This document shows, in pieces, positions 18,573-63,410 of a stretch of DNA of 64,000 bases. A program made the position numbers and the translations under genes. The stretch covers positions 33,927 through 97,926 of the forward strand of contig CAIXGW010000139.1 of NCBI GenBank assembly GCA_903919145.1. Direction: 5' to 3'. Below the pieces are notes generated by a model. That model was not told the origin of the DNA. It ran no database searches and saw only the letters and a program-made list of their open reading frames with translations. Origin of the DNA: an uncultured Myxococcales bacterium (lineage in GTDB: Bacteria; Myxococcota_A; UBA9042). Position 1 is the stretch's first letter; each line of letters starts with the position of its first letter.

Positions 18573-20138
18573 TCAAAATAGCAGCAGATTCTGTGGCGGC
18601 GGTCGATCGACGACCGGGTCGACCGCGCTCAGTACAGCCTCTGCCGTGGCCGGTCCGACCCCCGGCAAGGCCAACAGCAGGGCCTTCTTGGCCGCGGCGT
18701 CCAGCCCCTCAAGCCGATCCAGGACTGCGCCTTCGCCGCCCAGCTGCTGCAGGGCCATCGCACAGTCCGCCAGCCAGGTGGCACGGCGGGCCGGTAGCGG
18801 AATGCCAGCCTGCAGCGCCAGTTGGCGGGTAGACTCGCCGCGCTGTTCGGCCGGCAGCGCCTGCAAGGCGGCACTGCTGAGCAGCTGCCGCGCCTGCGGA
18901 TGGGCCGTCAGGTCGACGCCGCCCAGGTGGCGCAGCAGCGCCGGCCACAACACGCTGGCCAGGGCGGGCTGCGGCTTCTCCGGCGCAGGCTGAGCCAAAG
19001 CGGGAAAGAACTCCTCCAGATCGTCTGCCGGGGGAGCGTCAGGCGCCTCGGGCGCTGGTCCTGCCCAAGGCGCTGAGAACAGGTCCGAGCTGTCGGGCAC
19101 GGCGCTGTCAGGCACGGCGCTGTCAGGCACGGCGTTGTCAGGCACGGCGTTGTCAGGCTCGGCGTTGTCAGGCACGGCGTTGTCAGGCACGGCGTTGTCA
19201 GAGTCGGCGTTGTCAGAGTCGGTGCGGGCTGGGCCCTGGGCGTCGTAGGGTTCAGCGTCTTCGCCTTCTGGAGGGCGGACACCGGGCAACAGCGTCACGC
19301 GCAGCTCGTGGGCCGTAGGAATGACTTCCAGCAGGTCGTTCTGAGCGCGCAGCAGATCGGACAGCGTGCGGTGGCCCAAGGCGCGGTGGCGAAAACCCGG
19401 CATGGCCTGCTGAAGCAAATTGCCAATGGCACCAGTGGTCATGGCACCGCGCTGCCCAAGCATTTCCATCAGCAAAGCGCGAACTTGCTCAATGGTTGGG
19501 GAGCGCGGTGGGGCCTGGTCCGCTGGCCGGGAGTCCGCCGTCAGAGCGCTTGAGCCCTGAGCGTTGGCCGGCTCGGCGCTGGACCTGTCGCTGACTGGCT
19601 TGGTGCCGCCTGATCGGTCGCTGTCTTCGCGGTCGGCAGAGGCGGGCTCGGCAGCTGGGCGGTCTCCGCTGGCCCGGTCGGAGGCGAGCCTGTCGCTCAG
19701 CGACCTGTCAAAGTCCAGGCGCTCGAAACGATCACAGGCGGCGACCAGGGTGTCGGCCACTGACCGGCCCTTGGGGGCCACGCCAATGACGATTTTGCCG
19801 CGCGACCGCAACTTCTGGGCCAGCGGCACAAAATCGGAGTCGCCCGTCGCCAGGACGTAGACTTGCACGCTGGGCGTCAGGCTGAGGAACTCCATGACAT
19901 CGACCACGATCGCGATGTCGGCCGAGTTCTTGCCGCCGGTGCGCAGGATTTGGGTCGGCACGCCCCCGACGTCCAGGGTGGTGTCCCAGTGCTGGCCATA
20001 GCCGCGCCGCCAGTCGCCGTAGACCGCCAGATGGCAGACCCGGCCCTGGGTGGCGCCGAAGTCGGCCACCGAGCGGATGAATTGACCGCCGACATTTTCC
20101 ATGTCAACGAAGATGGCCACCAGGGCTGTGCTGACCAT
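18573..20138 (-). CDS. NYN-domain (LabA/PIN-like RNase fold) protein with OST-HTH/LOTUS-like domain and a (VPDNA)n pentapeptide repeat tract
   Basis: N-terminus IFVDMENV...YGDW...KNSADIAIVVDVMEF...VYVLATGDSDFVPLAQKLRSRGKIVIGV is the NYN signature. Mid-region IEQVRALLMEMLGQRGAMTTGAIGNLLQQ is LOTUS-like. Residues ~300-350: DSDNADSDNAVPDNAVPDNAEPDNAVPDNAVPDSAVPDSAVPDS, encoded by a 15 bp tandem DNA repeat (~19075-19215). Confidence 0.75.
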   Translation of the reverse strand: MVSTALVAIFVDMENVGGQFIRSVADFGATQGRVCHLAVYGDWRRGYGQHWDTTLDVGGVPTQILRTGGKNSADIAIVVDVMEFLSLTPSVQVYVLATGDSDFVPLAQKLRSRGKIVIGVAPKGRSVADTLVAACDRFERLDFDRSLSDRLASDRASGDRPAAEPASADREDSDRSGGTKPVSDRSSAEPANAQGSSALTADSRPADQAPPRSPTIEQVRALLMEMLGQRGAMTTGAIGNLLQQAMPGFRHRALGHRTLSDLLRAQNDLLEVIPTAHELRVTLLPGVRPPEGEDAEPYDAQGPARTDSDNADSDNAVPDNAVPDNAEPDNAVPDNAVPDSAVPDSAVPDSSDLFSAPWAGPAPEAPDAPPADDLEEFFPALAQPAPEKPQPALASVLWPALLRHLGGVDLTAHPQARQLLSSAALQALPAEQRGESTRQLALQAGIPLPARRATWLADCAMALQQLGGEGAVLDRLEGLDAAAKKALLLALPGVGPATAEAVLSAVDPVVDRPPPQNLLLF

Positions 20139-32400: not shown

Positions 32401-33345
32401 ATGACGACCCAGCCCCCCGGCGTGCAGGTGTGGCTCAACGGCCAGGTGGTCAGCGCAGAGCAGGCCCGGCTGCCGCATCTGACCCACTCGTTTCACTATG
32501 GTCTGGCGGCCTTTGAGGGCATTCGCGCCTACCAGACCCGCCCCGGTCGCGGCGCCATCTTCCGCCTCAAGGACCACATCCGCCGCCTGATGGAGAGCTG
32601 CCGCGTCACTACGCTGGACCGCGGCCTGAAGTGGACCACCGACGATTTGACCCAGGGCTGCATTGCGGCTCTTCAGGCAAACTCCTTGGATTCTGGGTAT
32701 TTGCGCCCGGTTGTCTACATCGCCGACGGCGCAATGGGCATCGGTGCAGCCAACAATCCCATCCACGCCATGATCGCCGCCTGGAAGTGGGGCGCGTACC
32801 TGGGAGAAGAGGGGCTCAAGAACGGCATTCGCTGCCGCATCTCTTCCTTTCAGCGGCCCGGCCACGCCACGGTGATGTCCAAAGCCAAGATCAACGGCCA
32901 GTACGTCAACTCGATCCTGGCCAAGAGAGAGGCCGCAGCCAGCGGCTATGACGAAGCCATCTTGCTCAACGAGCAGGGCTACATCACTGAAGCGTCTGGG
33001 GAAAACGTGTTCATGGTCCAGGCCGGCAAGCTGGTGACGCCGCCCCTTGGCATGAACATCCTGGGCGGCATCACCCGGCTGACGGTACTGCAGATCGCCC
33101 GCGACATGGGCATTGAGACGGTAGAGCGAGCCTTTGCCCGAGACGAATTGTACTGCGCCGACGAAGTGTTCTTGACGGGAACCGCCGCGGAAGTGACGCC
33201 AGTCAGAGAGGTCGATGGCAGGATGATCGGCATTGGGTCGCGCGGTGCGATCACCGAGCTCATGCAGCAGGAGTATTTTGAGACCGTGCAGGGCCGCCGC
33301 GATGACAAGTACGGTCACTGGCTAACCTACTACGATGTGACCTAG
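32401..33345 (+). CDS. ilvE: Branched-chain amino acid aminotransferase (PLP fold type IV)
   Basis: ATG 32401 preceded by GGAGGACCCG. Sequence VWLNGQVVSAEQARLPHLTHSFHYGLAAFEGIRAY..., ...EASGENVFMVQAGKLVTPP...LGGITR..., 314 aa. The upstream part of the ORF track (32140-) is rejected. Confidence 0.85.
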   Translation: MTTQPPGVQVWLNGQVVSAEQARLPHLTHSFHYGLAAFEGIRAYQTRPGRGAIFRLKDHIRRLMESCRVTTLDRGLKWTTDDLTQGCIAALQANSLDSGYLRPVVYIADGAMGIGAANNPIHAMIAAWKWGAYLGEEGLKNGIRCRISSFQRPGHATVMSKAKINGQYVNSILAKREAAASGYDEAILLNEQGYITEASGENVFMVQAGKLVTPPLGMNILGGITRLTVLQIARDMGIETVERAFARDELYCADEVFLTGTAAEVTPVREVDGRMIGIGSRGAITELMQQEYFETVQGRRDDKYGHWLTYYDVT

Positions 33346-33350
33346 GTGAC

Positions 33351-33446
33351 TGTGAGCGGTTGTCAGGGTGAGCGGTTGGCAGTGTGAGCGGTTGGCAGTG
33401 TGAGCGGTTGTCAGTGCGAGCGGTTGTCAGTGCGAGCGGTTCTGAG
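33351..33446. repeat. Tandem direct repeat, 6 x 16 bp (consensus TGTGAGCGGTTGTCAG), intergenic between ilvE and the next gene
   Basis: Read directly: TGTGAGCGGTTGTCAG / GGTGAGCGGTTGGCAG / TGTGAGCGGTTGGCAG / TGTGAGCGGTTGTCAG / TGCGAGCGGTTGTCAG / TGCGAGCGGTTCTGAG. Starts 6 nt after the ilvE stop. Confidence 0.9.
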
Positions 33447-33451
33447 CGAAT

Positions 33452-35110
33452 TTGGACGATTGGGGGATTGCGGTGGCCTTGTTCGAGCGCTTTGAGCGGT
33501 GGCAGACGGAGGATTTTGACGCGTTTTTGGAGCCCAAGTGGGCCTCGAATCGCTTCAACGTCGAGCGCGGGCGGGTGCGCGAGCGCTTGCGCTCGGCCTT
33601 TGAACAGATCGGCGAGGGCCACCCGCAACTGCTGAGCGGCCTGGAGGTCTGGGTCAGCCGCCAGGATCCCTGTTTTTTCAACCAGCACAGCGTCCGGCAG
33701 CTGCTGGCGGTGGTGGTAAGGCCGCAGGCGCACAGGGAGGTGCTGGAGCACGCCGACCCGCGCCTCTCGGCCACCCAGCCGGACCGCTGCCACGCCCACG
33801 CCGGCCTGCGCATCGACGCCACCAGTGTCGAGCTGCTGCTGGCGGTGCCGGAAGAGGCCCACTTTGACCTGGCGATGAGCGAAGAAGCTCGCCAGGGTCT
33901 GAGCGAGTTTGGGTTGCTGCTGGGCCAGGCCGACGTACAATTCCAGGGTGGCCTAAGGGTCTCGCGCACGTTTGACCGGCAAGAAGCCCTGGACTGGCCC
34001 GATCCGCTGGCGCAGCTGGTCGAGTGGCTAGAGCTGGCGGCGCCGCTGCTGCGGCAATTGCTCAGGCCGGTCGCGGCGGAGCCGCAGTCTTACAGCGAAG
34101 CGGCTGGCAGCGCGCCGGCGGCGGAGCGCCAAGAGGGCTTGGGCCCTGATGACCCGGCTCGTGCGGCCCCGCGCTCTTCTCTGCCGCCGTTGGGGCCGGC
34201 GATGCGGCCCTCTTTGCAGCTGGGCCCCGCTGGCCGGCCGCAGGCGCGCCTGGCCAGCGCCTTTGCCGAAACCCCAGCTGCTGCCAGCCTTTCTGCTGGC
34301 ACCCAGGTCACCACCCAGGGCGCGGCGCCAGCCAGCGCCGCTGCGCCGCAGCCTCAAGCCTGGACCCGCCAGCCCTACCGTCCGCAGATGCCGGCGCCCC
34401 AGCGCCAGCGCGCGACCCAAGACCGGCCCGACCTCGATCGCATCCTACCGCTGGGCGCCAAGCAGGCGCTGCAGGAGCTGCTGCAAGACGAGCAGCAACG
34501 CCGCCAACCCGAGCCGCCGCGCGACCCGCGGCCCCCCGTTGCCGAGCGCCGGCCGGATGCCCGGCAAGACCACCGCCAGGACCCGCGCCAGGACCCGCGC
34601 CAAGACCAGCGTCCAGACCACCGCCAGGACCAGCGTCCAGACCAGCGTCCGCCGCAGGGCCGGCCTGATCTGCGACCGGACCTTCGCCAAGAGCCGCGCC
34701 AGGAGACGCGCGGTGACCAGCGGCAGGATCCTCGGCTTGAAGCGCGGCGCCCCGACCAGCGCTCAGACCCCCGCCAGGACCAGCGGCGGGACGTTCGCGG
34801 TGACCCGCGCGGCGATTCCCGCGGCGACCAGCGGCGCGACCCCCGCCAGGACCCCCGCCAGGACCAGCGCCAGGACCCCCGACAGGACCCGCGGCAGGAC
34901 CCGCGCAACGCGCCGCGCGCCCAGCCGCCGCAGGCGCCCGCACCAGCCGACCGCCCGCAGACGCCGCCGATTGGCACGGCAGTGGTGCTGACCGGCGGTC
35001 TGCTGGCCGGCAAAGAGGGCGTGTTTGTGGCGATGAGAGGGCCCAACGTCAGGGTCAAAGTCGGTGTCCTGGAATTTGAGGTGGCGCCGTACCAGGTGCG
35101 GGTGAAATAG
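33452..35110 (+). CDS. Hypothetical protein: ~220 aa N-terminal domain, ~330 aa disordered Arg/Gln/Asp/Pro tract with degenerate RQDPR/RPDQR pentapeptide repeats, short C-terminal beta domain
   Basis: 552 aa ORF (TTG start per track; true start uncertain). Middle: ...RQDHRQDPRQDPRQDQRPDHRQDQRPDQRPPQGRPDLRPDLRQEPRQETRGDQRQDPR... C-terminus GTAVVLTGGLLAGKEGVFVAMRGPNVRVKVGVLEFEV. Stop is 3 nt before the next gene. Confidence 0.5.
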   Translation: MDDWGIAVALFERFERWQTEDFDAFLEPKWASNRFNVERGRVRERLRSAFEQIGEGHPQLLSGLEVWVSRQDPCFFNQHSVRQLLAVVVRPQAHREVLEHADPRLSATQPDRCHAHAGLRIDATSVELLLAVPEEAHFDLAMSEEARQGLSEFGLLLGQADVQFQGGLRVSRTFDRQEALDWPDPLAQLVEWLELAAPLLRQLLRPVAAEPQSYSEAAGSAPAAERQEGLGPDDPARAAPRSSLPPLGPAMRPSLQLGPAGRPQARLASAFAETPAAASLSAGTQVTTQGAAPASAAAPQPQAWTRQPYRPQMPAPQRQRATQDRPDLDRILPLGAKQALQELLQDEQQRRQPEPPRDPRPPVAERRPDARQDHRQDPRQDPRQDQRPDHRQDQRPDQRPPQGRPDLRPDLRQEPRQETRGDQRQDPRLEARRPDQRSDPRQDQRRDVRGDPRGDSRGDQRRDPRQDPRQDQRQDPRQDPRQDPRNAPRAQPPQAPAPADRPQTPPIGTAVVLTGGLLAGKEGVFVAMRGPNVRVKVGVLEFEVAPYQVRVK

Positions 35111-37387: not shown

Positions 37388-37416
37388 TTGAAATCTGCGG
37401 GTGCAAAAGCTATTTT
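37388..37416 (+). promoter_or_regulatory. Sigma-70-like promoter candidate TTGAAA-17 nt-TATTTT upstream of the giant Cys-rich lipoprotein gene
   Basis: CTTGAAATCTGCGGGTGCAAAAGCTATTTTG. -35 matches TTGACA at 5/6, 17 nt spacer, -10 matches 4/6. Lies ~100 nt upstream of ATG 37518. Sequence-only call. Confidence 0.25.
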
Positions 37417-37517
37417 GGGCGCTGGCTGCCGCTTTCCCAGTGCAAAGAGTGCTTGGCTTTTTTGGCCTGCGCACCTGGATCGCCGGGCGAGGCGGCGATG
37501 CCCAAGGGAGCAAGGCC

Positions 37518-40500
37518 ATGAGTGTCGCGCGTCGGCAAGAGGGCCCCCTAGCAGAGGGGCACAGGATGGGGGCGACGCGGGCCGGCCCTGTGCAGCGGCG
37601 ACCTTGGGCTTGGCTGGCGCTGTCCTTGGCCCTCTGCGCGGCGATCGCTGGGGGGTGTGAAGGCAAGTTCCTGACAGCCGAGCAGATCGACCAGCGCTTG
37701 GATGCGGCTGGGACGGCCGCCGATGGCGCGGATGTCGCTGGATTGGAGGGCGACGCCGACTCGCAGGCGGACACGCTGGCGGCTGCGGATTCAGACGGCG
37801 CCGGCTCTTCCGACTCAGCTGGCGAGACCGCCAGCGGCTGTGTCAGCGCTGCCGACTGCAGCGATGGCAACCCTTGCACCACCGATGCGTGCCCTGCGTC
37901 CGGAACCTGCGAGCACACTGCCATCGCCGACGGCGGCACCTGTGACGACGGCAATGCCTGCACCGCCGGCGAATTCTGCGCCGCTGGCAAGTGCGGCGGT
38001 GGCACCGTCAAACACTGCGACGACAACAACGTCTGTACCGCCGACGCCTGCCTGCCCGCCAAGGGCTGCACCCACACCGACGACGACGGCGCGACCTGCG
38101 ATGACGCCGACCCCTGCACAGTGGGCGACAAGTGTCTGGCCGGCCAATGCCAAGCCCAGCCCAAAGACTGCGGCAATGACGCGTGCACCACTGCCAAGTG
38201 CGTCAACGGCGTGTGCAAGTCCGCCAGCAAGGTCGACGGCTTGGACTGCGACGACAAAGATGGCTGCACCAGCGGCGACAAGTGCCAAGACGGCCTGTGC
38301 GTCGGCGCCCAAAAGACCCTCTGTGACGACAAAAATCCATGCTCAATAGATAGTTGTGTGGGCACCCTGGGCTGCCAGTTTGCGCTGGTCGATGGGCCGT
38401 GCAGCGACGGCGATGCTTGCACCCTGGGCGACACCTGTGCTGGCGGGACCTGCGCAGCCGGGGCGACCAAGGCCTGCGATGACGGCAATCCCTGCACCCA
38501 AGACCTGTGCCAGCCAGTGGATGGCAGCTGTGCCGTGACGCCGACCGCCGGCCCCTGCAGCGACGGCAATGCCTGCACCACCGGCGATGGCTGCGCGGCC
38601 GGCGCGTGCTCTGCGGGCAAGCTGGCGGGCTGCGATGACAACAATCCGTGTACGGTCGACAGCTGCGACGCCAATTCTGGCTCCTGCACGGCGCTTTTCA
38701 ACACCGCCGGCTGCGAGGACGGCGATGCGTGTACCGTGGGCGACAGCTGCAGCGGCGGCGAGTGCAAGGCCGGTGCGGTCAAGCCCTGCGCCGACAGCGA
38801 CACCTGCACCAGCGACGCTTGCGACGCCAAGACTGGCGCGTGCCAACACAGCAAAATCAATGGCTGCGGCGAGTTTTGCGCCAGCGTGGCCGACTGCAAG
38901 GCCGGCAACGTGTGCAATCAAGTGGCATGCCTGAGCGGCAAGTGCGCGTTCCTGCCCACCACGGCCATCTGCGACGATGGCGATGCTTGCACGCTGGCCG
39001 ATCAGTGCGGCGCCGGAGCCTGCCAGCCCGGCAGCCCCAAGAATTGCGACGACGGCAAGCCCTGCACCACCGACAGCTGCCAGGCCGGCACCTGCAACCA
39101 CGCCAACAACAGCGACCCGTGCTCGGACAACAACGCATGCACCCAGGGCGATCTCTGCAAAGGCGGCGCCTGCGGCTCAGGCAAGGCCAAGGCCTGCGAC
39201 GACGGCAATCCCTGCACCAGCGACAGCTGCGACGTCAGCAGTGGCGACTGTCAGGCAACGGCCAACAGCGAAGCCTGCGACGACAAAAACCCCTGCACCA
39301 GCACCGACAGCTGCCAGCTGGGCCAGTGCGCCGCCGGCACCCCAGTGAACTGCGACGACGGCAACCTCTGCACCCACGACAGCTGCGACGGCAAGACCGG
39401 CACCTGCGTCCACGCCAACAACAGCGCGCCGTGCAGCGACGGCAATGCCTGCTCCGAGGGCGACGTCTGTGCCCAGGGCAGCTGCGCCAGCGGGGCCGCC
39501 AAGGTGTGCCAGGACGGCAATGCCTGCACCAACGATGCCTGCGATCCGCTCAGCGCCGCCTGCCTTTACACCCCCAACGCCGCGCCCTGCAGCGACGGCG
39601 ACGCCTGCACCATCGGCGACAGCTGTGCGGCAAGCGGCTGCAAAGCGGGGGCCGCCAAGGTCTGCGCCGACAGCGACACCTGCACCAACGACACCTGCGA
39701 TTCTGCTAGCGGCAACTGCGTTTACAAGCCGATTACCGGCTGCGGCGGCAACTGCACCAAGCCCAGCGACTGCGGCGACGCCAACCCATGCACCGACGAC
39801 TCCTGCGTCAGCGGCAAGTGCGCCTTTCCAGCCAATACGGCCGCGTGCAGTGACGGCAACGCCTGTACCGTCAGTGACCTGTGCAGCGGCGGAACCTGCA
39901 AGGCGGGCGCGACCAAGGCCTGCAGCGACGGCAATCCGTGCACGGCCGACGCCTGTGACAACAAGAGCGGCGACTGCGGCCACACCCCCAATGTCGCCGG
40001 CTGCGATGACGGCAACGCCTGCACGGCGGGAGACGTCTGCGGCGGCGGTGCGTGCAAGGCTGGCAAGGCCACCGACTGCAGCGACGGCAATCCGTGCACC
40101 GACGACGCCTGCGATCCCACCAGCGGCAACTGCAAGTCCAGCTCCAACACAGCGACTTGTACCGACGGCAATGCCTGCACCAGCGGCGACGTCTGTGCCG
40201 GTGGCACCTGCAAGCCCGGCGCGGCCAAGGGTTGCGATGACGGCAACCCCTGCACCAATGACGCCTGCGACCCGCTGAGCGGCGTTTGCTCCAAGGTGGC
40301 CAACTCTGCCCAATGCAGCGACGCCAATGACTGCACCCAAGGCGATTTGTGCTCCGCTGGCGTGTGCAAGCCCGGGGCGGCCAAGGCCTGCGACGACAAG
40401 AACGTCTGTACCCAAGACAGCTGCGACGCCGCCAGCGGAGCGTGCGTGGCCGCGCCCAACGCCGCGCCCTGCGACGACGGCAGCAAGTGCACCCAGGCCG

Positions 40501-43500
40501 ACAAGTGCACAGCCGGCAGCTGCCAGCCGGGCACCGCCAAAGTCTGCGACGACGGCCAGGCTTGCACGATCGACAGCTGCAGCCCAGGCGACGGCAGCTG
40601 CGTGTTTGCACCCAAGATCGGCTGTGGCGGCAACTGCAACACCGCCAGCGACTGCAGCGATGGCAACGGCTGCACCGACGACCAGTGCGCTGCCGGCAAG
40701 TGCGCGTTTCCCAACAACACTGCCAGCTGCACGGACAACAACCCGTGCACCCTGCAAGATGCCTGCAGCGGCGGCACCTGCAAGGCCGGCAGCGCCAAGA
40801 CCTGTGACGACAGCAATCCCTGCACCAATGACAGCTGCAATGCCACCACCGGCCTGTGCAATTATGTAGGAAATACAGCAGGGTGTTCGGACAGCGACGC
40901 TTGCACCGCCCCGGACCTGTGCGCCAACAGCAATTGCACACCGGGGGCCAAGAAGACCTGCACAGACAACAACCCGTGCACCAATGATAGCTGCAATCCC
41001 GCCACCGGCGCTTGCGTCAACGCCAACAACAGCGCCGTATGCAACGACAACAACGCCTGCACGTCTGGCGACATCTGCAGCGGCGGCAGCTGCGCTGGCC
41101 CCGTGACCGTGGGCTGCGACGACGGCAAGCTGTGCACAACGGACAGCTGCGACCCGGCCGGCGGCTGCAAGACCGTCAACAACAGCTCGCCGTGCAATGA
41201 CAACAACCTCTGCACCACCGGCGACACCTGCTCGGGCGGCGGCTGCGTGGGCGGGTCCGCACCGGTGTGCAATGACAACAACGCGTGCACCACCGATAGC
41301 TGTGCTGCGGCCATTGGATGCAAGTTCGACGCCAATACCAACGCTTGCGAAGACGGCAACAAGTGCACCCTCAACGACGTCTGCAGCGCTGGAACCTGCA
41401 GCGCCGGCTCGGGCAAGACCTGCACGGACAGCGACACCTGCACGACCGACAGCTGCGATCCAGCCAGCGGATCCTGCGTCTACAAGCCCATCATCGGCTG
41501 CGGCGGCTACTGCGACAGCAGCGCCAACTGCAATGACGGCAACCTCTGCACCGACGACGCCTGCGTGGCCGGAAAGTGCACCAACACTGCCAATACCGCT
41601 AATTGCACTGACAATGACGCCTGCACCACCGGCGACAAGTGCAGCGGCGCAGCCTGCAAGCCCACCGGCACGCTGACCTGCAGCGACGGCAACGTCTGCA
41701 CCAGCGACAGCTGTGTCAAGGCCACTGGTTGCAGCTTTGTCAACAATAGTGCCAGCTGCACAGACAACAATGCCTGTACTACCGGCGACTTGTGCTCGGG
41801 CGGTGCCTGCCTGGGCGGCGCCCCGCCCAGCTGCGAGGACAACAACGGCTGCACGACGGACAGCTGCGACAAGGGCAAGGGCTGCCAGAACCTGGCCAAC
41901 AACGCGCCCTGCGACGATGGCGACGCCTGCACCGCCAATGAGCAATGCGCCAAAGGCAATTGCGTGGCCACCACCGACGTGCTGTGCACTGACAACAACG
42001 CGTGCACCAACGACTCCTGCGACAAAGCCCAGGGCTGCGTGTTCACCAACGTCAGCAACGGCGCCGGCTGCGACGACGGCAAGCCCTGCTCGCTGGGCGA
42101 CAGCTGCCTGGCGGGGCAGTGCAAGGCTGGAGTGGCGGTGTGGGTAGACAGGCTGGCCGGCTCTGTTCCAGCCCCCAACAGCGGCGCTGGCGGCGGCAGC
42201 TATGCGGAGGGCACCGGCGAAAAGGCGGCCTTCAACACCCCCATGGGCATCGCGTTTCACCCAGGGGTCAATGTCCTGGTCGTGGCTGATACCTATAACC
42301 ACCTGATCCGAAAGGTGACGTTGCAGGGAAAGGTCAGCGATATCGCGGGTGTAGCCGGCAAGGGCAGCTATGCCGATGGCCAGGGCAGCAATGCGGCGTT
42401 CAACCTGCCAATGGGCGTCGCCGTGAGACCAGATGGGCAGATCCTGGTCGCTGACACGGGCAACCACCTGATCCGCGCAGTGATGATCGATGGCACCGTT
42501 ACCACTGTAGCTGGTACAGGCAGCGGCGGCAGTCAGGATGGCAGCGTCAAGTCGGCCACCTTCGTAGGGCCGCGCGGCGTGGCGGTCAGCGTGGGAGGTG
42601 TTGCTGCCATCGCGGACACGGGCAATCACATGATTCGCCTGATAAAGCTTAGTGAGGGGCTGGTGGTGACGCTGGCCGGATCTCCCTCAGCTGGGTTCAA
42701 AGACGGCATGGGCAGCGCCGCGCAGTTCAACACTCCCGTTGGCGTGGCCTTTGACACAGCGGGTCGCCTCTACGTGGCGGACCAAAGCAATCACCGGATT
42801 CGCCAAGTCCTGCCCAGCGGACAGGTCTTGACGGTAGCCGGCGATGGCACGGCGGGCATGGCCGACAGCACCAACCCCCTGTTGGCCAAGTTCAACTTCC
42901 CGGCCGGGGTGCTTGTGGCGCCCACGGGGCTGTTTGTGGCTGACAGCTTCAATGGCCGCATCCGCCGCGGCGCAGCCAATGGCGTGGCCACGCTGGCCGG
43001 CTCAGGCACTGGGGCCGTCGATGGGCTCGCGGCCAGCGCCACCTTCTACCTGCCCCAGAGCCTTGCGGCCGATAGCGGCGGCTACCTCTACGTCGCCGAT
43101 GTCTACAACCACTTGATCCGGCGGGTGCGCGACTCCAGTGGGGGGTGCACCATCAATGGCCAGTGCGTCGTGGGCGGCTGGTGGAAGCCGGGAGCCAGCT
43201 GCTACCGCTGCGAGGCAGCCTCCTCTGCCACCGCCTGGACGGGCAAGCCCAACGGCGCGCCGTGTGATGACGGGCTGCTCTGCACCGCTGAAGACCTCTG
43301 CAACTACAAGTCGGGGCCGGTGGCGTGCAACGGCACGGTGGTCACCTGCAACGACGGCAATGCGTGCACCAACGACTCTTGCAGTGCGGCCACCGGGGCG
43401 TGCCAGAACCTGGCCGGCAGCGGCGCCTGCGACGACGGCAGCCCCTGCACCTATCCCGACACGTGCAGCGGCGGCAGCTGCGGGGCCGGCACCCAAAATG

Positions 43501-44876
43501 GCTGCGCCGACGGCAATCCCTGCACCGAAGACCTGTGCAACAAGACCGCCAACACCTGCGAAAACCCGCCGGTCAGCTACGGAATCTCTTGCACGGCGAT
43601 GGGCAAAGAAGGGTCGGCCTTCTGCGCTGGGACCAAGTGCACCTCGCTGGAGCAGAGCGCCAACATCGTCATTACCGGAGGGGCTACGCTGTCGCGCCTG
43701 ACCTCGGTGGACCGCGGCCCTGACAAAGAGCTTTACGTCAGCGGCTTTGGCGCCAATCCCCTGATGGCCGGGGGCCTTTCGGCGATCTACAAAGTCGCCA
43801 CTGCCAGCTCGCCGCCGTCTGTGGCGCTGAGCTACTCTGGCAGCCATGAGATCTGGACGGTGGTGCGGCGCTTGGCCAGCGGCGGATTTGGCACCGTGGG
43901 CGGCACTGCGGATAGCGCGGCCTTGCTGTGGGGGCTGAGCAACGGCACCTGGGCGCCCACCGCCGGCCCGGGGAGCCTGGGCAGCCGGTCCTTGCGCGAA
44001 GCCAGCGTCTACCTGGCCTCGGACGGCAGCGAGAACTATCTGTTTGGCGGAGCCACCGACACCGGCGGCAACCCGACCTCGCTGTACCGGGCGCGGTGGA
44101 CCGGCTCGGGTTGGTCCACGGCCAGCGGCAGCGGCGAAATGGCGCTGTTCAACTCTGCGCCAGCCAACGCAGGCGAGTGTGCCACCAAGCGGATCGGCGC
44201 TCCCATCGCCGGGCTGGCCACCTACTCGGCCACGGAGGGCTACGTCGCCAGCAACTGGGGCTCAGCGGCGCCCCTGGCCCAGGTGGCGCTGTGGGACGCC
44301 AACAGCACGGTGAGCACGACTTGTGCGACCTATGCCCCAGGCGGCTCTGTGTTCTATGGCACGGGCGCCAACTACCTGGGAGTGCAGGGCACGGCCACTG
44401 CGGTCGCGGCGACCAGCGCGTCGCGGGCGCTGTTGGTCGGCACCCAGGGGACTGCGCCGTTCATCTACCGGCGCACGGCCAACGGCTGGACGGCCGAGTC
44501 ACCGGCGCCGCTGCCGCCGTCTGGCTTGCCTGCCTGGAACGCTGGCAACTATGCGCCCAGCAGCGTCTGGCTGGGGGCCAGCGATGCCTGGGTGGTGGGG
44601 ACCCTCAAGTTCAGCGGCTGTGCCTATGTGTTTGCCCTGCACGCCTCGATGGGCGCCACCACCGCAGTGTGGGACAAGCTGTTGGTGACCACCAACACCG
44701 TCGTGGGCTGCTCCGCCTCGGCCAGCAGCCACGTCAGCGCCACCAAGGTGTGGGGCGACCCGACCGATGGCGCGATCTACATCACCGGCTCAGCGCCCAC
44801 CGACAGTACCGGCAAGACCTGGGTCAATTCCGGTGGGTCGATGGGCCAGGTCGGCATCCTGTGGCGAATCAAGTAG
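37518..44876 (+). CDS. Giant (~2450 aa) secreted lipoprotein built from several dozen ~40 aa Cys-rich repeats (Myxococcus-type cysteine-rich repeat), a six-blade NHL-repeat beta-propeller and a ~450 aa C-terminal domain
   Basis: ATG 37518 (AAGGGAG upstream) or 37566. Signal/lipobox WAWLALSLALCAAIAGGC|EG. Repeat unit, e.g. CSDGNPCTTDACPASGTCEHTAIADGGTCDDGNACTAGEFCAAGKCGGGTVKHCDDNNVCTADAC, iterated ~35 times. NHL motifs NHLIRKV / NHLIRAV / NHMIRLI / NHRIRQV / NGRIRRG / NHLIRRV. More Cys repeats after the propeller. Confidence 0.8.
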   Translation: MSVARRQEGPLAEGHRMGATRAGPVQRRPWAWLALSLALCAAIAGGCEGKFLTAEQIDQRLDAAGTAADGADVAGLEGDADSQADTLAAADSDGAGSSDSAGETASGCVSAADCSDGNPCTTDACPASGTCEHTAIADGGTCDDGNACTAGEFCAAGKCGGGTVKHCDDNNVCTADACLPAKGCTHTDDDGATCDDADPCTVGDKCLAGQCQAQPKDCGNDACTTAKCVNGVCKSASKVDGLDCDDKDGCTSGDKCQDGLCVGAQKTLCDDKNPCSIDSCVGTLGCQFALVDGPCSDGDACTLGDTCAGGTCAAGATKACDDGNPCTQDLCQPVDGSCAVTPTAGPCSDGNACTTGDGCAAGACSAGKLAGCDDNNPCTVDSCDANSGSCTALFNTAGCEDGDACTVGDSCSGGECKAGAVKPCADSDTCTSDACDAKTGACQHSKINGCGEFCASVADCKAGNVCNQVACLSGKCAFLPTTAICDDGDACTLADQCGAGACQPGSPKNCDDGKPCTTDSCQAGTCNHANNSDPCSDNNACTQGDLCKGGACGSGKAKACDDGNPCTSDSCDVSSGDCQATANSEACDDKNPCTSTDSCQLGQCAAGTPVNCDDGNLCTHDSCDGKTGTCVHANNSAPCSDGNACSEGDVCAQGSCASGAAKVCQDGNACTNDACDPLSAACLYTPNAAPCSDGDACTIGDSCAASGCKAGAAKVCADSDTCTNDTCDSASGNCVYKPITGCGGNCTKPSDCGDANPCTDDSCVSGKCAFPANTAACSDGNACTVSDLCSGGTCKAGATKACSDGNPCTADACDNKSGDCGHTPNVAGCDDGNACTAGDVCGGGACKAGKATDCSDGNPCTDDACDPTSGNCKSSSNTATCTDGNACTSGDVCAGGTCKPGAAKGCDDGNPCTNDACDPLSGVCSKVANSAQCSDANDCTQGDLCSAGVCKPGAAKACDDKNVCTQDSCDAASGACVAAPNAAPCDDGSKCTQADKCTAGSCQPGTAKVCDDGQACTIDSCSPGDGSCVFAPKIGCGGNCNTASDCSDGNGCTDDQCAAGKCAFPNNTASCTDNNPCTLQDACSGGTCKAGSAKTCDDSNPCTNDSCNATTGLCNYVGNTAGCSDSDACTAPDLCANSNCTPGAKKTCTDNNPCTNDSCNPATGACVNANNSAVCNDNNACTSGDICSGGSCAGPVTVGCDDGKLCTTDSCDPAGGCKTVNNSSPCNDNNLCTTGDTCSGGGCVGGSAPVCNDNNACTTDSCAAAIGCKFDANTNACEDGNKCTLNDVCSAGTCSAGSGKTCTDSDTCTTDSCDPASGSCVYKPIIGCGGYCDSSANCNDGNLCTDDACVAGKCTNTANTANCTDNDACTTGDKCSGAACKPTGTLTCSDGNVCTSDSCVKATGCSFVNNSASCTDNNACTTGDLCSGGACLGGAPPSCEDNNGCTTDSCDKGKGCQNLANNAPCDDGDACTANEQCAKGNCVATTDVLCTDNNACTNDSCDKAQGCVFTNVSNGAGCDDGKPCSLGDSCLAGQCKAGVAVWVDRLAGSVPAPNSGAGGGSYAEGTGEKAAFNTPMGIAFHPGVNVLVVADTYNHLIRKVTLQGKVSDIAGVAGKGSYADGQGSNAAFNLPMGVAVRPDGQILVADTGNHLIRAVMIDGTVTTVAGTGSGGSQDGSVKSATFVGPRGVAVSVGGVAAIADTGNHMIRLIKLSEGLVVTLAGSPSAGFKDGMGSAAQFNTPVGVAFDTAGRLYVADQSNHRIRQVLPSGQVLTVAGDGTAGMADSTNPLLAKFNFPAGVLVAPTGLFVADSFNGRIRRGAANGVATLAGSGTGAVDGLAASATFYLPQSLAADSGGYLYVADVYNHLIRRVRDSSGGCTINGQCVVGGWWKPGASCYRCEAASSATAWTGKPNGAPCDDGLLCTAEDLCNYKSGPVACNGTVVTCNDGNACTNDSCSAATGACQNLAGSGACDDGSPCTYPDTCSGGSCGAGTQNGCADGNPCTEDLCNKTANTCENPPVSYGISCTAMGKEGSAFCAGTKCTSLEQSANIVITGGATLSRLTSVDRGPDKELYVSGFGANPLMAGGLSAIYKVATASSPPSVALSYSGSHEIWTVVRRLASGGFGTVGGTADSAALLWGLSNGTWAPTAGPGSLGSRSLREASVYLASDGSENYLFGGATDTGGNPTSLYRARWTGSGWSTASGSGEMALFNSAPANAGECATKRIGAPIAGLATYSATEGYVASNWGSAAPLAQVALWDANSTVSTTCATYAPGGSVFYGTGANYLGVQGTATAVAATSASRALLVGTQGTAPFIYRRTANGWTAESPAPLPPSGLPAWNAGNYAPSSVWLGASDAWVVGTLKFSGCAYVFALHASMGATTAVWDKLLVTTNTVVGCSASASSHVSATKVWGDPTDGAIYITGSAPTDSTGKTWVNSGGSMGQVGILWRIK

Positions 44877-58593: not shown

Positions 58594-60000
58594 AGGAACG
58601 CCATGGACGCCATCGACCACTCCCTTGCTTCTGCCGGCTGCGCGCCCTTGCCGCCACTGCTGCCCTTGGTCGATCAGAAGCGCCAGCTGGTGACGGCCGC
58701 TTTGCGCGCCCTGCTGGGGCTGCCGGACCACGTGCCGCTGCAATGGCGCGACCAGGCGGCGGCGGCGGGGCTGGAGCGCGGGCCAGAGCCGGCCTGGTTC
58801 TATCTGCTGGAGATCGGCGCTGCGCCGCAGCAGCTGCAGCTTGAGCTGGCTTCGGCCGCCGGCCCTCAAGCGGCGTACTTTCGCGGCCAGCGGCTGACCC
58901 TGGGCCATCGCGCGCTGCCGGCGGAGGCGCAGGCGATCTGGCAAGCGCTGGTGCGGCGGGCCAGGGCCGTCGACAGCGGCGCCGCGCCAGGGGCCTTGCT
59001 CGACCAGCTGCAGCAGGCGCGCCGGGCCTATGCGCCCTACCACGGTCTTGACGATCAGGAGTTCCACAGCCTGTCTGGCACGGAAGCCTTGCTGCGCCTG
59101 GGTTTTCGCTGCAACCAGGACTGCAGCTTCTGCTGGCAAGGCAGAGAATGGCCCGAGCCCGACCTGCCGATCCTGCTGACCTGGTTGGACCAGCTGGCCG
59201 GCCTGGGGGCCCAGAGCCTGGTGCTGACCGGTGGCGAGCCGACGCTCTACCTGGACAAGCTGCGCGCCGTGGCCGATCGCGCCAGGCAGGTGCATGGATT
59301 GCGCGTCTACGTGCAGAGCAATGGCATCCGCCTGCGCCAGCCAGCGGTGCTGCAGGCCCTGCAAGCTGCGGAAGTCAGCGGCGTGCTGCTTAGCTATCAC
59401 AGCGCCGACGCACAGATTTCCGACGAGATGACCCGCGCGCCCGGCACCCATCGGTTGACCGAGCAGGGCATTGCGGCAGCGCTGAGGGCTGGGCTGGAGG
59501 TCGACCTCAACGTGGTGGTAGAGCGGCGCACTTTGCCCGGCCTGGTAGAGCGCTCGCTGCGGATTCTGCAGGAGTTTGTGCCGCTGCGCCGCCAGCCCTC
59601 GCAGCTGGGGGCCACCTTCTCCTTTCCCACCGACTACCGCGATCCCGCCATCTACGCCAAAGAAGTGGCGCCGCTGGATGAAGTCGGCCCCCTGCTGGCC
59701 CGCGCTCTGCAGCTGCTCAAGGGCGCCGGGGTGCGGGTCTCGCCGCTTGGGGGCTGTGGATTTCCGCTGTGTGTCCTGGCCACGGCGCCAGAGTGCATCG
59801 AGCTGGGGTGGATGAAAAAGCTGGCCCCAGAGCACCTGCGCAGTCGACAGCACCCGCCGGTGTGCGAGAGCTGTCAGCTGCGCGCTTGGTGCCTGGGGCC
59901 GCGCCGCGATTATCTGCAACACCACGGCAGTCGTGGGCTATTGCCCTTTGCGCGCGTGCCGCCGGAAATTGGCGGGCAACTGCAGCGCGGTTCTGCGTGA
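58594..60000 (+). CDS. Radical SAM enzyme with C-terminal SPASM/twitch-like Cys cluster and an unrecognised ~185 aa N-terminal domain
   Basis: ATG 58594 preceded by CTGAGGAACGCC. Radical SAM cluster motif CNQDCSFC at ~aa 188; GGEPTLY glycine-rich SAM motif. C-terminal cysteines GGCGFPLC ... APEC ... VCESCQLRAWC. The 5' extension of the ORF track (58393-) covers repeat copy B and is rejected. Confidence 0.75.
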   Translation, partial: RNAMDAIDHSLASAGCAPLPPLLPLVDQKRQLVTAALRALLGLPDHVPLQWRDQAAAAGLERGPEPAWFYLLEIGAAPQQLQLELASAAGPQAAYFRGQRLTLGHRALPAEAQAIWQALVRRARAVDSGAAPGALLDQLQQARRAYAPYHGLDDQEFHSLSGTEALLRLGFRCNQDCSFCWQGREWPEPDLPILLTWLDQLAGLGAQSLVLTGGEPTLYLDKLRAVADRARQVHGLRVYVQSNGIRLRQPAVLQALQAAEVSGVLLSYHSADAQISDEMTRAPGTHRLTEQGIAAALRAGLEVDLNVVVERRTLPGLVERSLRILQEFVPLRRQPSQLGATFSFPTDYRDPAIYAKEVAPLDEVGPLLARALQLLKGAGVRVSPLGGCGFPLCVLATAPECIELGWMKKLAPEHLRSRQHPPVCESCQLRAWCLGPRRDYLQHHGSRGLLPFARVPPEIGGQLQRGSA

Positions 60001-60028
60001 GACGGCAAACCATCGCGGTTTCGGGCCG

Positions 60029-60060
60029 GGAGCCTGTCTGAACTGTGCCCTACAGGCTCC
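60029..60060. terminator. Hairpin with perfect 9 bp stem GGAGCCTGT-(14 nt)-ACAGGCTCC between convergent radical SAM and hsp20 genes; possible bidirectional terminator (no U-tract)
   Basis: Read directly from sequence at 60029-60060; immediately followed by the 18 bp tandem repeat array. Confidence 0.3.
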
Positions 60061-60063
60061 GAG

Positions 60064-60127
60064 ATCACTGTCTTGGCTCAGGTCACTGTCTTGGCTCAGG
60101 TCACTGTCTTGGCTCTGGTCACTGGCC
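60064..60127. repeat. Tandem direct repeat, 3.5 x 18 bp (GTCACTGTCTTGGCTCAG), in the 67 nt gap between the radical SAM stop and the hsp20 stop
   Basis: ATCACTGTCTTGGCTCAG / GTCACTGTCTTGGCTCAG / GTCACTGTCTTGGCTCTG / GTCACTGGCC, read directly. Confidence 0.9.
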
Positions 60128-60131
60128 CGCC

Positions 60132-60572
60132 TCAGTTCATGGCCTTGATGGTGACCTTGCGCGGCTGAGCCTCGGCCTTCTTGGGCAGCTCGATGCGCAG
60201 CACGCCGTCTTTGACCGTGGCCATGATGTGGTCGGCCTGCACGTTGTTGGGCAGGGTGAACGACCGCGTGAAGGAGCCGTAGCTGCGCTCGATGCGGTGG
60301 TAGCTGTCTTTCTTCTCTTCTTTCTCAAGCTTGCGCTCGCCGCTGACCGTCAGCGTCTGGGCTTCGACATCGATGTGCATGTCGTCGAGCTTGACCTCGG
60401 GCAGGTCGAACTTGAGCGTGTACTTGTCGGTGTCTTCGTAGATGTCCACAGTGGGTTGAAACTGCTTGACCTGCGCGCCGCGGTAGCCTTCGGTGCGAGT
60501 GTCGAGCATCTTCTGCAGCTCGCCTTGCAGGGTGTCAATGTCAGACCAGGGGTTCCAGCGCATCAGAGTCAT
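60132..60572 (-). CDS. Small heat-shock protein, Hsp20/alpha-crystallin family
   Basis: ATG 60572 preceded by CCGGAGGATGAG. Alpha-crystallin domain ...FQPTVDIYEDTDKYTLKFDLPEVKLDDMHIDVEAQTLTVSGERK...SYGSFTRSFTLPNNVQADHIMATVKDGVLRIELPK; 146 aa. Confidence 0.9.
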   Translation of the reverse strand: MTLMRWNPWSDIDTLQGELQKMLDTRTEGYRGAQVKQFQPTVDIYEDTDKYTLKFDLPEVKLDDMHIDVEAQTLTVSGERKLEKEEKKDSYHRIERSYGSFTRSFTLPNNVQADHIMATVKDGVLRIELPKKAEAQPRKVTIKAMN

Positions 60573-60796
60573 CTCATCCTCCGGTTGGGCGGCCAGCTCA
60601 CTTGGGCGGACCGCCATGGTTCCACAGGTAGAACGGCTGCCGGCTTCCAACCGCAGGGCCCGCTGACCGTTCGACGTGGAGATAGGCAAGGACGGTTTGA
60701 TCGGAAGTCAAGGGGTATTCGTATTGAATATCAAGCCGTTGTGAGAGGGTCTGGCTGAACCTATCAAGTAAATCCGTCGCTCGCTGGCCGTCAAGG

Positions 60797-60806
60797 GGCA
60801 ATTGCC
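60797..60806. promoter_or_regulatory. Perfect 10 bp palindrome GGCAATTGCC 58 nt upstream of glgP (same motif as upstream of zwf); overlaps a second inverted repeat TTGCC-N7-GGCAA
   Basis: Read directly: AAGGGGCAATTGCCAACCGCCGGCAACAGG, in the hsp20/glgP divergent intergenic region. Confidence 0.3.
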
Positions 60807-60863
60807 AACCGCCGGCAACAGGGCCACCATCAGGGACACTGTCTAGCAAACGCGGAGGGCGCA

Positions 60864-63410
60864 ATGTCCGCTGGCAACCAACCGTTGAATTCTGTGAAAC
60901 AAGGTCCCGCTCCTGCTGCCCAACCCCCAGACGCCGCGGCCGCTGCCGACCTGCGGGCCCCGATTCGGCTGGGAATGGACCCGCCGTCGATCCGCCACGA
61001 CTTCCTGCACAACTTGTTCACCCGCCAAGCAAAATTTGCCGAGGTCGCCACCAGGAATGACCACTACTTGGCGCTGGCGTGGACGGTCCGCGATCGCCTG
61101 CTGCAGCGGTGGATCAGCTCGGCCCGCACCTACCGCGACAAAGAGAGCCGGACGGTGGTCTATCTGTCGGCCGAGTACCTGATCGGCCCCCAGCTCGAGC
61201 ACAACCTGCTGAATCTGGGGATCCGCCAGCAAGCGGCCGAAGCGCTGCAGTCGCTGGGCATCGACCTGGAGCAGCTGATTGACCATGAAGAGGAACCTGG
61301 GCTGGGCAATGGCGGCCTGGGTCGCTTGGCCGCCTGCTACATGGACTCGCTGGCGACGCTGGGCATGCCGGCCATTGGCTACGGCATCCGCTATGAGTAC
61401 GGGATCTTTGACCAGCGCATTGTCGACGGGTGGCAGGTCGAGCGCACCGATCGCTGGCTGCACCTGGGCAATCCCTGGGAAATTCCGCGCTACCAGATCG
61501 ACCACCTGGTGGGCTTTGGTGGCCACGTCGACAACGGCCACGACGCGCAGGGCCACTTCCGCCCACAGTGGGTGCCCGAGCGGCGGATCCGCGGGGTGGC
61601 CTATGACACGCCGGTGCTGGGATATGGTCGCGAAAACGCCAATTTCCTGCGGCTGTGGACCGCCCAGGCCGAAGAGGACTTTGACATTGCCGCCTTCAAC
61701 ACCGGCGATTACATCGGCGCCGTGCACCAGAAGGTGGCCAGTGAAAATGTCACCAAAGTCCTTTACCCCAATGACAATTCCCTAGCTGGCAAGCAGCTGC
61801 GGCTAGAGCAGCAGTACCTGTTCATCAGCTGCTCTCTGCAGGACATGATCCGGATCTATCGGCAAAAGAGCCCAGATCTCAGAGGTATATCCAGAAAGTA
61901 CGCCGTCCAGCTCAATGACACGCACCCGGCGTTGGCCATCGCCGAGCTGATGCGCCTGCTGGTCGATGTCCACGCCATGGGCTGGGACGACGCCTGGAAG
62001 GTCACGGTCGCCACCTGTGCCTACACCAACCACACGCTGCTGCCCGAAGCGCTGGAGACCTGGCCGCTGGACCTGCTGCGCCGGCTGCTGCCGCGGCATG
62101 TGCAGATCATCTTTGAGATCAACCAGCGCTTTCTTGCCGAAGTGCGCGCCCGCTTTCCCGGCGATCATCACCTGGTGCGGCGGGTGTCGCTCATCGACGA
62201 GGAGGGCCAGCCGCGGGTCCGCATGGCCCACTTGGCGGTGGTGGGCTGCCACAAAGTCAATGGCGTGGCGGCGCTGCATTCAGAGCTGCTCAAGCAGACG
62301 GTGCTCGCTGACTTTGCCAAGCTGTTTCCCGAGCGTTTTACCAACGTGACCAATGGCGTTACCCCGCGGCGCTTTGTGCAATTGGCCAACCCAAAGCTGT
62401 CTGCGCTGATCAACGAGGCGATTGGACCGGGGTGGGAGATCGATCTGGAGAGGCTGCGCCAGCTGGAGCCGCTGGCTGAAGACGCGGCGTTTCGCGATCG
62501 CTGGCGCGCCGTCAAGCAGGCCAACAAGCACCGCCTGACCGACTTCTTGCAGAGCCACGTGGGGCTGGGGTTTGATCCCCACACGCTGCTGGACTGCCAG
62601 ACCAAGCGCATTCACGAGTACAAGCGTCAGCATCTCAACTTATTGCGGGTGATCGTTGCCTACGACCGCCTGCGCCGCGGGCTGGACGAAGACGCGCCGC
62701 CGCGCACGGTCATGCTGGGTGGCAAGGCGGCGCCGGGCTACCTGATGGCCAAGCTGATCATCCGCCTGGCCCACGGCGTGGCCGAGGTGCTGGACCGCAA
62801 TCCGCTGGTCAGAGAGCGGCTGCGGGTGGTGTTTGTGCCCGACTTCAACGTCAAGGTCGGCCAAGTGCTCTATCCGGCCGCCGATCTGAGCGAGCAGATC
62901 TCTACCGCCGGCAAAGAGGCCAGTGGGACGGGCAACATGAAGTTCGCCCTCAATGGCGCCCTGACCATTGGCACGCTGGACGGCGCCAACGTCGAGATCC
63001 GCGACCTGGTGGGGCCAGAGAACTTCTTTCTGTTTGGCCAGAACGCCGCTCAGGTGGTAGAGACCCGCCGCGGAGGCTACCGGCCTCAGGACTACGCCGA
63101 GCGCAACCCCGAGCTGCGGCTGGCCCTGCAGCTCATCTCCAGCGGCCATTTCTCCAGGGGCGACGCGGATATGTACGAGCCGCTGGTCAAAGAGCTGCTT
63201 GGCCGCGATGAGTTCTTGGTCCTGGCCGACTTTGACGCCTACTGGGCAGCCCAGGGCCAGGTCGACGCGCTGTGGGCGGATTCTGCTGCGTGGACGCGGG
63301 CTTCGATCCTCAACTGCGCTCGCACCGGCTGGTTCAGCTCCGACCGGTCGATGCGCGACTATGCCGAGCGGATCTGGAAGATCGAGGCAGAGACTGTGGA
63401 GATCGGTTAA
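60864..63410 (+). CDS. glgP: Glycogen/maltodextrin phosphorylase (GT35)
   Basis: ATG 60864 preceded by CGCGGAGGGCGCA. PLP-binding signature EASGTGNMKFALNGALTIGTLDGANVEI; ...GKAAPGYLMAKLIIRL...; 848 aa. Confidence 0.9.
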   Translation: MSAGNQPLNSVKQGPAPAAQPPDAAAAADLRAPIRLGMDPPSIRHDFLHNLFTRQAKFAEVATRNDHYLALAWTVRDRLLQRWISSARTYRDKESRTVVYLSAEYLIGPQLEHNLLNLGIRQQAAEALQSLGIDLEQLIDHEEEPGLGNGGLGRLAACYMDSLATLGMPAIGYGIRYEYGIFDQRIVDGWQVERTDRWLHLGNPWEIPRYQIDHLVGFGGHVDNGHDAQGHFRPQWVPERRIRGVAYDTPVLGYGRENANFLRLWTAQAEEDFDIAAFNTGDYIGAVHQKVASENVTKVLYPNDNSLAGKQLRLEQQYLFISCSLQDMIRIYRQKSPDLRGISRKYAVQLNDTHPALAIAELMRLLVDVHAMGWDDAWKVTVATCAYTNHTLLPEALETWPLDLLRRLLPRHVQIIFEINQRFLAEVRARFPGDHHLVRRVSLIDEEGQPRVRMAHLAVVGCHKVNGVAALHSELLKQTVLADFAKLFPERFTNVTNGVTPRRFVQLANPKLSALINEAIGPGWEIDLERLRQLEPLAEDAAFRDRWRAVKQANKHRLTDFLQSHVGLGFDPHTLLDCQTKRIHEYKRQHLNLLRVIVAYDRLRRGLDEDAPPRTVMLGGKAAPGYLMAKLIIRLAHGVAEVLDRNPLVRERLRVVFVPDFNVKVGQVLYPAADLSEQISTAGKEASGTGNMKFALNGALTIGTLDGANVEIRDLVGPENFFLFGQNAAQVVETRRGGYRPQDYAERNPELRLALQLISSGHFSRGDADMYEPLVKELLGRDEFLVLADFDAYWAAQGQVDALWADSAAWTRASILNCARTGWFSSDRSMRDYAERIWKIEAETVEIG

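Follow-up and report, generated by a model that had tools for sequence, protein, structure and literature searches.

A copy-number-variable 18-bp tandem repeat, probably seeded at the hsp20 stop codon, between convergent radical SAM and hsp20 genes of an uncultured bacterium

Results and discussion

The gap between the 3′ ends of convergent genes for a radical SAM (rSAM) protein and a small heat-shock protein (hsp20) holds an array of directly repeated 18-bp units. We consider it very likely that this array is a lineage-specific, copy-number-variable minisatellite (VNTR), which is expected to be neutral or nearly so and was probably seeded at the hsp20 stop codon. It consists of tandem units far above chance expectation, its copy number varies between conserved flanks, and it is absent from distant relatives. 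The locus is thus most likely of a known kind, an ordinary bacterial VNTR, for which the functional proposals found no support. Its biological weight is small, adding one more VNTR in an uncultured, probably Myxococcota, lineage.

The rSAM-hsp20 gap and its array

All coordinates refer to the window, i.e., the 64-kb stretch of DNA analyzed here, unless a contig is named (Table 1). The product of the rSAM ORF matches the Pfam family Radical_SAM (E 3.7e-16) and is 100% identical to a database protein of 465 residues (P0001), from the length of which we derived the start coordinate of the gene. The hsp20 product matches Pfam HSP20 (E 1.6e-27). The 131-nt gap between the two genes (60001-60131) belongs to a neighborhood of aminotransferase, Lrp, rSAM, hsp20 and glycogen phosphorylase (glgP) genes, the order of which is syntenic in three lineages.

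Table 1. Genes, repeats and related features in the window and on two contigs of relatives (L003 and L004)
Feature	Position	Strand	Remarks
15-bp array, 8.4 copies	19091-19216		93% matches; inside a 521-aa ORF (18573-20138, -)
Class IV aminotransferase gene	32401-33345	+	
Second intergenic array, 16 bp, 5.7 copies	33351-33441		TGTGAGCGGTTGTCAG; 5 nt after the class IV aminotransferase stop
Nested 12-, 24- and 36-bp repeats	34565-34968		inside ORF 33452-35110
156-bp repeats	39425-40133		inside ORF 37401-44876 (2491 aa)
rSAM gene	58603-60000	+	465 aa; convergent with hsp20; stop at 59998-60000
Perfect 9-bp inverted repeat	60029-60037 / 60052-60060	.	GGAGCCTGT / ACAGGCTCC; loop 14 nt; 28 nt after the rSAM stop
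Three near-perfect 18-bp units	60064-60117	.	ATCACTGTCTTGGCTCAG, GTCACTGTCTTGGCTCAG, GTCACTGTCTTGGCTCTG; variable part of the array
Degenerate fourth unit	60118-60135	.	GTCACTGGCCCGCCTCAG; in-register consensus match 14/18; includes the hsp20 stop codon
Putative array seed	60131-60148	-	hsp20 stop and last codons (..KAMN*); 13/18 in register
hsp20 gene	60132-60572	-	146 aa; stop at 60132-60134; GGAGGA upstream of ATG
21-bp near-perfect duplication, 2.0 copies	L003 921-962		GGGCCTAGAGGCTGACGGAGA; convergent gap beside the aminotransferase gene
21-bp near-perfect array, 4.7 copies	L004 8456-8560		GGGTCGTCGAGCGAACGGCTC; at the extreme 5′ end of a predicted MFS transporter gene (7207-8565, -)

An earlier note on this DNA had described an 18-bp tandem repeat in the gap, which was confirmed by TRF and by counting the 18-mer. 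TRF called a repeat at 60065-60124 with a period of 18, 3.3 copies, 97% matches and a score of 113. Allowing up to three mismatches, the 18-mer occurs three times in the window, each time within the array, against 0.03 occurrences expected, and none of 100 shuffles reached three. The same note had counted 3.5 units ending at the hsp20 stop. Whereas the repeat stands, its extent had to be revised to about four units, of which the fourth holds the stop codon. In CRISPR arrays, unique spacers of roughly equal length lie between the repeats. We rejected a CRISPR array here because the 18-bp units abut directly, with a start-to-start spacing of 18 bp, leaving no spacers between them.

Copy number differs between assemblies

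The comparison of copy number among assemblies, which had been proposed as a check, revealed variation. A contig of 899 bp from a separate ENA metagenome (L001, ERZ27313229) encodes the exact hsp20 protein. Over about 360 bp aligned with the window, both flanks of the array are 100% identical, and L001 carries exactly one 18-bp unit fewer. L001 retains both distinctive edge units (the A-initial unit and the CTCTG unit), and the perfect middle unit is missing. The suspected recent expansion or contraction is thereby borne out, as the two sequences differ by exactly one unit between identical flanks. The contig L019 (ERZ18636414) has one synonymous SNP in hsp20 and stops inside the array after two units. 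On the ERZ1426635 contig the gap appears to be 131 nt, as in the window, judged from gene coordinates. We also searched for further alleles through contigs encoding the exact Lrp, glgP and aminotransferase proteins, and those contigs with DNA end before the gap. The number of units changes in whole-unit steps within an otherwise single sequence type, with two alleles (the window and L001) fully sequenced at this array.

Short-read metagenome contigs of the species (L019-L025) repeatedly end near the locus, at about 59940-60720 of the window. Their end points lie inside rSAM, inside the array, or in the hsp20-glgP intergenic region, where the L019 scaffold has a run of N. Such repeated contig ends suggest strain-level heterogeneity around the locus, and arrays of this kind help to explain why short-read assemblies of the organism are fragmented.

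The array is absent from relatives and from other genomes

The closest syntenic relatives of the locus were found on the contigs L002 and L003, which carry rSAM homologs of 80% and 73% identity, respectively, in the order aminotransferase, Lrp, rSAM, convergent hsp20 and glycogen phosphorylase. Their rSAM-hsp20 gaps measure 36 nt in L002 and 45 nt in L003, and both the hairpin and the 18-bp unit are absent from these two gaps. The C-terminus of hsp20 (..TIK[A/P]MN*) is conserved in both relatives, indicating that the array leaves the hsp20 protein unaltered.

The search for the 18-mer beyond the locus, which the earlier note had recommended, returned matches at the level of chance. Among 185,579 GTDB species genomes (596 Gb), a set from which the source species is apparently absent, we found 13 single matches in unrelated taxa, about as many as expected by chance, and none of the 13 was in tandem. 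A 24-nt version of the unit had no match in JGI metagenomes or in viral contigs, and no further unit was found in the 64-kb window or in about 40 kb of other contigs from the same species. Judging from these comparisons, the array is young, lineage-specific and local.

Apparent origin at the hsp20 terminus

The fourth unit extends the repeat into the hsp20 gene. A match to the consensus as good as that of the fourth unit (at least 14 of 18 positions) has an empirical frequency of 1.6e-5 elsewhere in the window. On the minus strand, the end of hsp20 reads AAG GCC ATG AAC TGA G, and the unit reads AAG ACA GTG ACC TGA G. For this putative seed, the 13/18 match at 60131-60148 has a frequency of 9.5e-5 per position and rotation, and 23 of the 36 nt past the last good unit match in register against 9.4 ± 2.7 under the null, in a comparison for which the register window was picked after inspection of the data. 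The strictly next unit after the fourth one (60136-60153) matches at only 9 of 18 positions.

This similarity suggests that a duplication across the hsp20 stop codon may have given rise to the array. An 18-bp segment comprising the hsp20 stop and the last four codons would have been duplicated in tandem, and the downstream, untranslated copy would then have drifted to the sequence of the present unit. Recently, the resulting unit was amplified and trimmed in whole-unit steps, either by replication slippage or by unequal recombination. The apparent duplication across a stop codon presents a small, clean example of how an intergenic minisatellite could be seeded.

Does the array have a function?

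Because the array lies outside both ORFs and away from promoters, gain and loss of units are expected to be neutral or nearly so, and the array would for this reason persist as a polymorphism. We infer neutrality from the position of the array and its lack of conservation. The earlier note had considered several functional readings, all of which are weakened by the absence of the element from the two closest syntenic relatives. Contingency loci, such as those of Neisseria, Haemophilus and Campylobacter, resemble the array in the slippage-driven gain and loss of units. They act through the reading frame or promoter spacing, with repeats in the 5′ coding region or the promoter, whereas the array here has a unit length that is a multiple of three and follows the stop codons of both genes, away from any promoter. 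Since it resides behind both 3′ ends, changes in unit number cannot shift a frame or a promoter, which leaves the reading as a contingency locus unsupported.

The array might be a 3′-UTR element of the hsp20 or rSAM mRNA, exerting copy-number-dependent stability or titrating a protein or an sRNA, a reading that we regard as quite unlikely. As the array starts right at the hsp20 stop codon, an hsp20 transcript extending to the hairpin 70 nt further on would include it. The GUGACCU (7 nt) of each unit complements AGGUCAC in the last hsp20 codons, and the inverted repeats I1 and I2 are complementary at 75% over 16 nt, although such a complementarity over 16 nt is unremarkable. A search of Rfam with 59000-61500 at E ≤ 10 produced no meaningful match, only microRNA, lncRNA and intron noise. 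RNA folding of the array compared with shuffles gave z-scores of +0.36 and +1.25, of which the latter belongs to the hsp20 sense strand and indicates less structure than in the shuffles; the whole gap scored about -1.1 on both strands. Moreover, copy number varies within the species, and the syntenic relatives lacking the element have hsp20 with the same C-terminus.

The more specific suggestion of a thermosensor or stability element in the hsp20 3′-UTR fared no better, as neither an Rfam match nor structure in excess of the shuffles was found. Known hsp RNA thermometers are structured 5′-UTR elements. The ROSE, fourU and Hsp17 types, like the array, are associated with genes of the hsp20 family, but they reside in a structured 5′-UTR and mask the Shine-Dalgarno sequence, whereas the array lies on the 3′ side without unusual predicted structure or an Rfam match.

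We find it quite improbable that the array is a copy-number-tunable 3′-UTR module on the hsp20 mRNA, operating through 3′-end stability or through AGGUCAC/GUGACCU pairing. Were it one, slippage would generate heritable, graded variation in the output of the small heat-shock protein, and the duplication of gene 3′ ends, stop codon included, might recurrently yield 3′-UTR repeats and C-terminal extensions in the clade. An effect of copy number on hsp20 expression, if real, would be an unusual 3′-side analogue of contingency loci; nothing points in this direction.

With its three to four 18-bp direct repeats, the array also matches the format of many binding-site arrays, and an Lrp/AsnC regulator gene is located 1.7 kb from the array. 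One could thus imagine protein-binding repeats, iteron-like or for a transcription factor, e.g., a roadblock or a nucleoid-protein site between the convergent genes. This explanation is very doubtful, however, because the space between two 3′ ends offers no promoter as a target of regulation; a scan found no promoter-like site. In addition, neither the rest of the window nor other contigs of the same species contain the motif, relatives with the same Lrp gene do without the array, and the 18-bp period is out of helical phase. Plasmid iterons, which the earlier note had named, are likewise small arrays of direct repeats of about 17-22 bp. They are, however, conserved binding sites flanking a rep gene or origin, whereas the array here is chromosomal, in a housekeeping context, unconserved and variable; with neither a replication gene nor a plasmid context among the neighboring genes, the iteron reading has no support.

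The hairpin beside the array

The gap also contains a hairpin, which is a feature separate from the array. The perfect 9-bp stem with a 14-nt loop, reported earlier, was found as described. Stems of 9 bp or more that pair perfectly around loops of 3-20 nt occur 7 times in the window, against 10.7 ± 3.4 under a first-order Markov null. As their number is not beyond chance, we rejected the hairpin as a statistically exceptional feature. Folding gave minimum free energies of -17.2 (plus strand) and -19.2 kcal/mol (minus strand), with z-scores of -0.7 and -1.8. As a GC-rich stem-loop between two gene ends it resembles intrinsic (Rho-independent) terminators, from which it differs by its long loop (14 nt), a stem unexceptional for GC-rich sequence and the lack of a U-tract after the hairpin on either strand; a terminator scan of the locus returned 0 sites. 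Lacking a U-tract, the hairpin might perhaps still serve one or both transcripts as a terminator-like or 3′-end-protecting stem-loop.

Alternatively, the hairpin and the array together could be the remnant of a small mobile or REP/MITE-like insertion, as the gap exceeds those of the relatives by about 90 nt and holds a stem reminiscent of terminal inverted repeats. This alternative is very unlikely. The 64-kb window contains neither a second copy of the hairpin at up to three mismatches nor another copy of the unit, other contigs of the same species yielded no second copy either, the hairpin had no match in viral contigs, and no target-site duplication is recognizable. The matches in register with the end of hsp20 instead suggest a local origin.

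A second polymorphic array and the question of assembly

The window contains a second intergenic array, made up of 16-bp units. It is polymorphic as well, with one unit missing in L027 and a SNP in one unit in L028; judged from gene coordinates, the gap on the ERZ1426635 contig is shortened as in L027. The gene downstream of this array starts at about 33473; owing to its place upstream of a gene, the 16-bp array is more likely than the hsp20 array to be capable of influencing expression. As the 16-bp array behaves alike, intergenic arrays that change by single units appear to be a habit of the organism, not a peculiarity of the hsp20 locus. The two arrays together offer ready strain markers for tracking the population across metagenomes. 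We rejected a kinship of the 18-bp and 16-bp units, which share CAGTG..TGAGC, because 32% of shuffles reach the best local alignment score. We also rejected the seeding of the 16-bp array from the terminus of its upstream gene, for which the in-register identity is only 4-7 of 16 positions.

The earlier note had assumed that arrays of this kind are rare in the intergenic DNA of GC-rich bacteria. The second array in the window and a density of 0.12 arrays per kb in related loci do not bear this out. Nor do the tandem arrays of GC-rich Burkholderia pseudomallei, about 70% of which are intergenic (PMC1853098).

It is highly unlikely that misassembly produced the array or the difference in copy number, a concern also raised at the outset. 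Every sequence used derives from short-read metagenome assembly, one contig breaks off within the array, and around the locus the species is represented by fragmented contigs. The array was, however, seen in three independent assemblies (the window, L001 and L019). Its length of 54-72 bp is shorter than both typical reads and a k of 141, as inferred from the contig names (k141_...), which makes an assembly collapse unlikely. Furthermore, the deletion in L001 comprises exactly one unit with both distinctive edge variants kept, and the second array in the window differs between contigs in the same manner.

Of the 39 indels in mutation-accumulation lines of Myxococcus xanthus, 27 added or removed a single unit of a tandem repeat, a 16-nt motif being among those affected, and the authors attributed these single-unit indels to strand slippage (PMC11069108). 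The M. xanthus 16-nt repeat (CAGAGCCTCGAAATCA) comes likewise from a myxobacterial, GC-rich genome and has a unit of similar length (16 vs. 18 and 16 bp). It differs in sequence and locus, and its change was observed experimentally in a cultured strain, whereas we compared natural samples.

VNTR loci of this type are used in MLVA typing, e.g., of Burkholderia pseudomallei, Xanthomonas and Yersinia pestis. The hsp20 array shares with them head-to-tail units of about 6-20 bp, a mostly intergenic location and whole-unit changes between identical flanks, and differs in its low copy number (2-3 perfect units) and in being known from metagenome assemblies only. The VNTRs of B. pseudomallei mutate faster than 1e-5 per locus and generation, and unit changes have been attributed to slipped-strand mispairing (PMC1853098).

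The rSAM family and arrays near it

The rSAM gene belongs to an uncharacterized family with conserved C-terminal Cys motifs, found mainly in Myxococcota MAGs, from which the best-named homologs also come. In three lineages (the window, L002 and L003), the gene is kept beside a divergent Lrp/AsnC regulator gene and an aminotransferase gene. A more distant relative with 56% identity is located on L004 (GCA_964586155.1, CAZPHC010000010.1), where the downstream convergent gene encodes DJ-1, not hsp20. The rSAM/DJ-1 gap of L004 (6375-6489) contains a short stem, a 12-bp repeat in 2 copies and a 14-bp array in 3.2 copies (GGCACTTCGCGTCG). These repeats are unrelated in sequence to the 18-bp unit, and the 14-bp array cannot encode a repeated peptide because of its unit length.

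Prompted by L004, we surveyed the family for a link between arrays and rSAM genes. From JGI metagenomes 59 loci were fetched, and TRF was run on 53 usable loci, including L002-L004. In only 2 of the 53 loci does an array start less than 200 nt downstream of the rSAM gene, corresponding to 0.19 arrays per kb compared with 0.12 per kb over all 366 kb. We rejected the link, as this is no meaningful enrichment; the arrays next to rSAM genes may reflect coincidence or a clade-wide habit.

The unit corresponds to six codons, and the rSAM protein is distantly similar to the peptide maturase HxsC (E 8e-18), which together would allow a repetitive precursor peptide (..SLSWLRSLSWLRSLSWLW.. or ..GHCLGSGHCLGSGH..) matured by the adjacent enzyme; we dismiss such a RiPP precursor as effectively refuted by the missing ORF, since every ORF crossing the 131-nt gap starts inside rSAM or runs antisense through hsp20 and none is contained in it, and by the lack of conservation, the 80% and 73% relatives keeping the enzyme with gaps of only 36-45 nt, quite apart from the weak HxsC score (64 bits against a cut-off of 268) and the scarcity of nearby arrays in the family, where one of the two has a 14-bp unit that is not a multiple of three.

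Further repeats in the window and clade

Several repeats in the window lie inside ORFs (Table 1). The 15-bp array would encode a repeated pentapeptide linker. The nested 12-, 24- and 36-bp repeats encode a run of (D/E)PRQ- or RPDQ-like tetrapeptides, forming a highly charged low-complexity tail of an ORF product with no Pfam or NCBIfam match. The 156-bp repeats encode Cys-rich modules of about 52 residues (..DGNACT.GD.C....C..), which presumably resemble myxobacterial cysteine-rich repeats. On L004, the 21-bp array at the 5′ end of the MFS transporter gene would encode a repeated heptapeptide, or would belong to the leader should translation in fact start further downstream. The 21-bp duplication on L003 appears to be a further young array of the clade located at the 3′ end of a gene.
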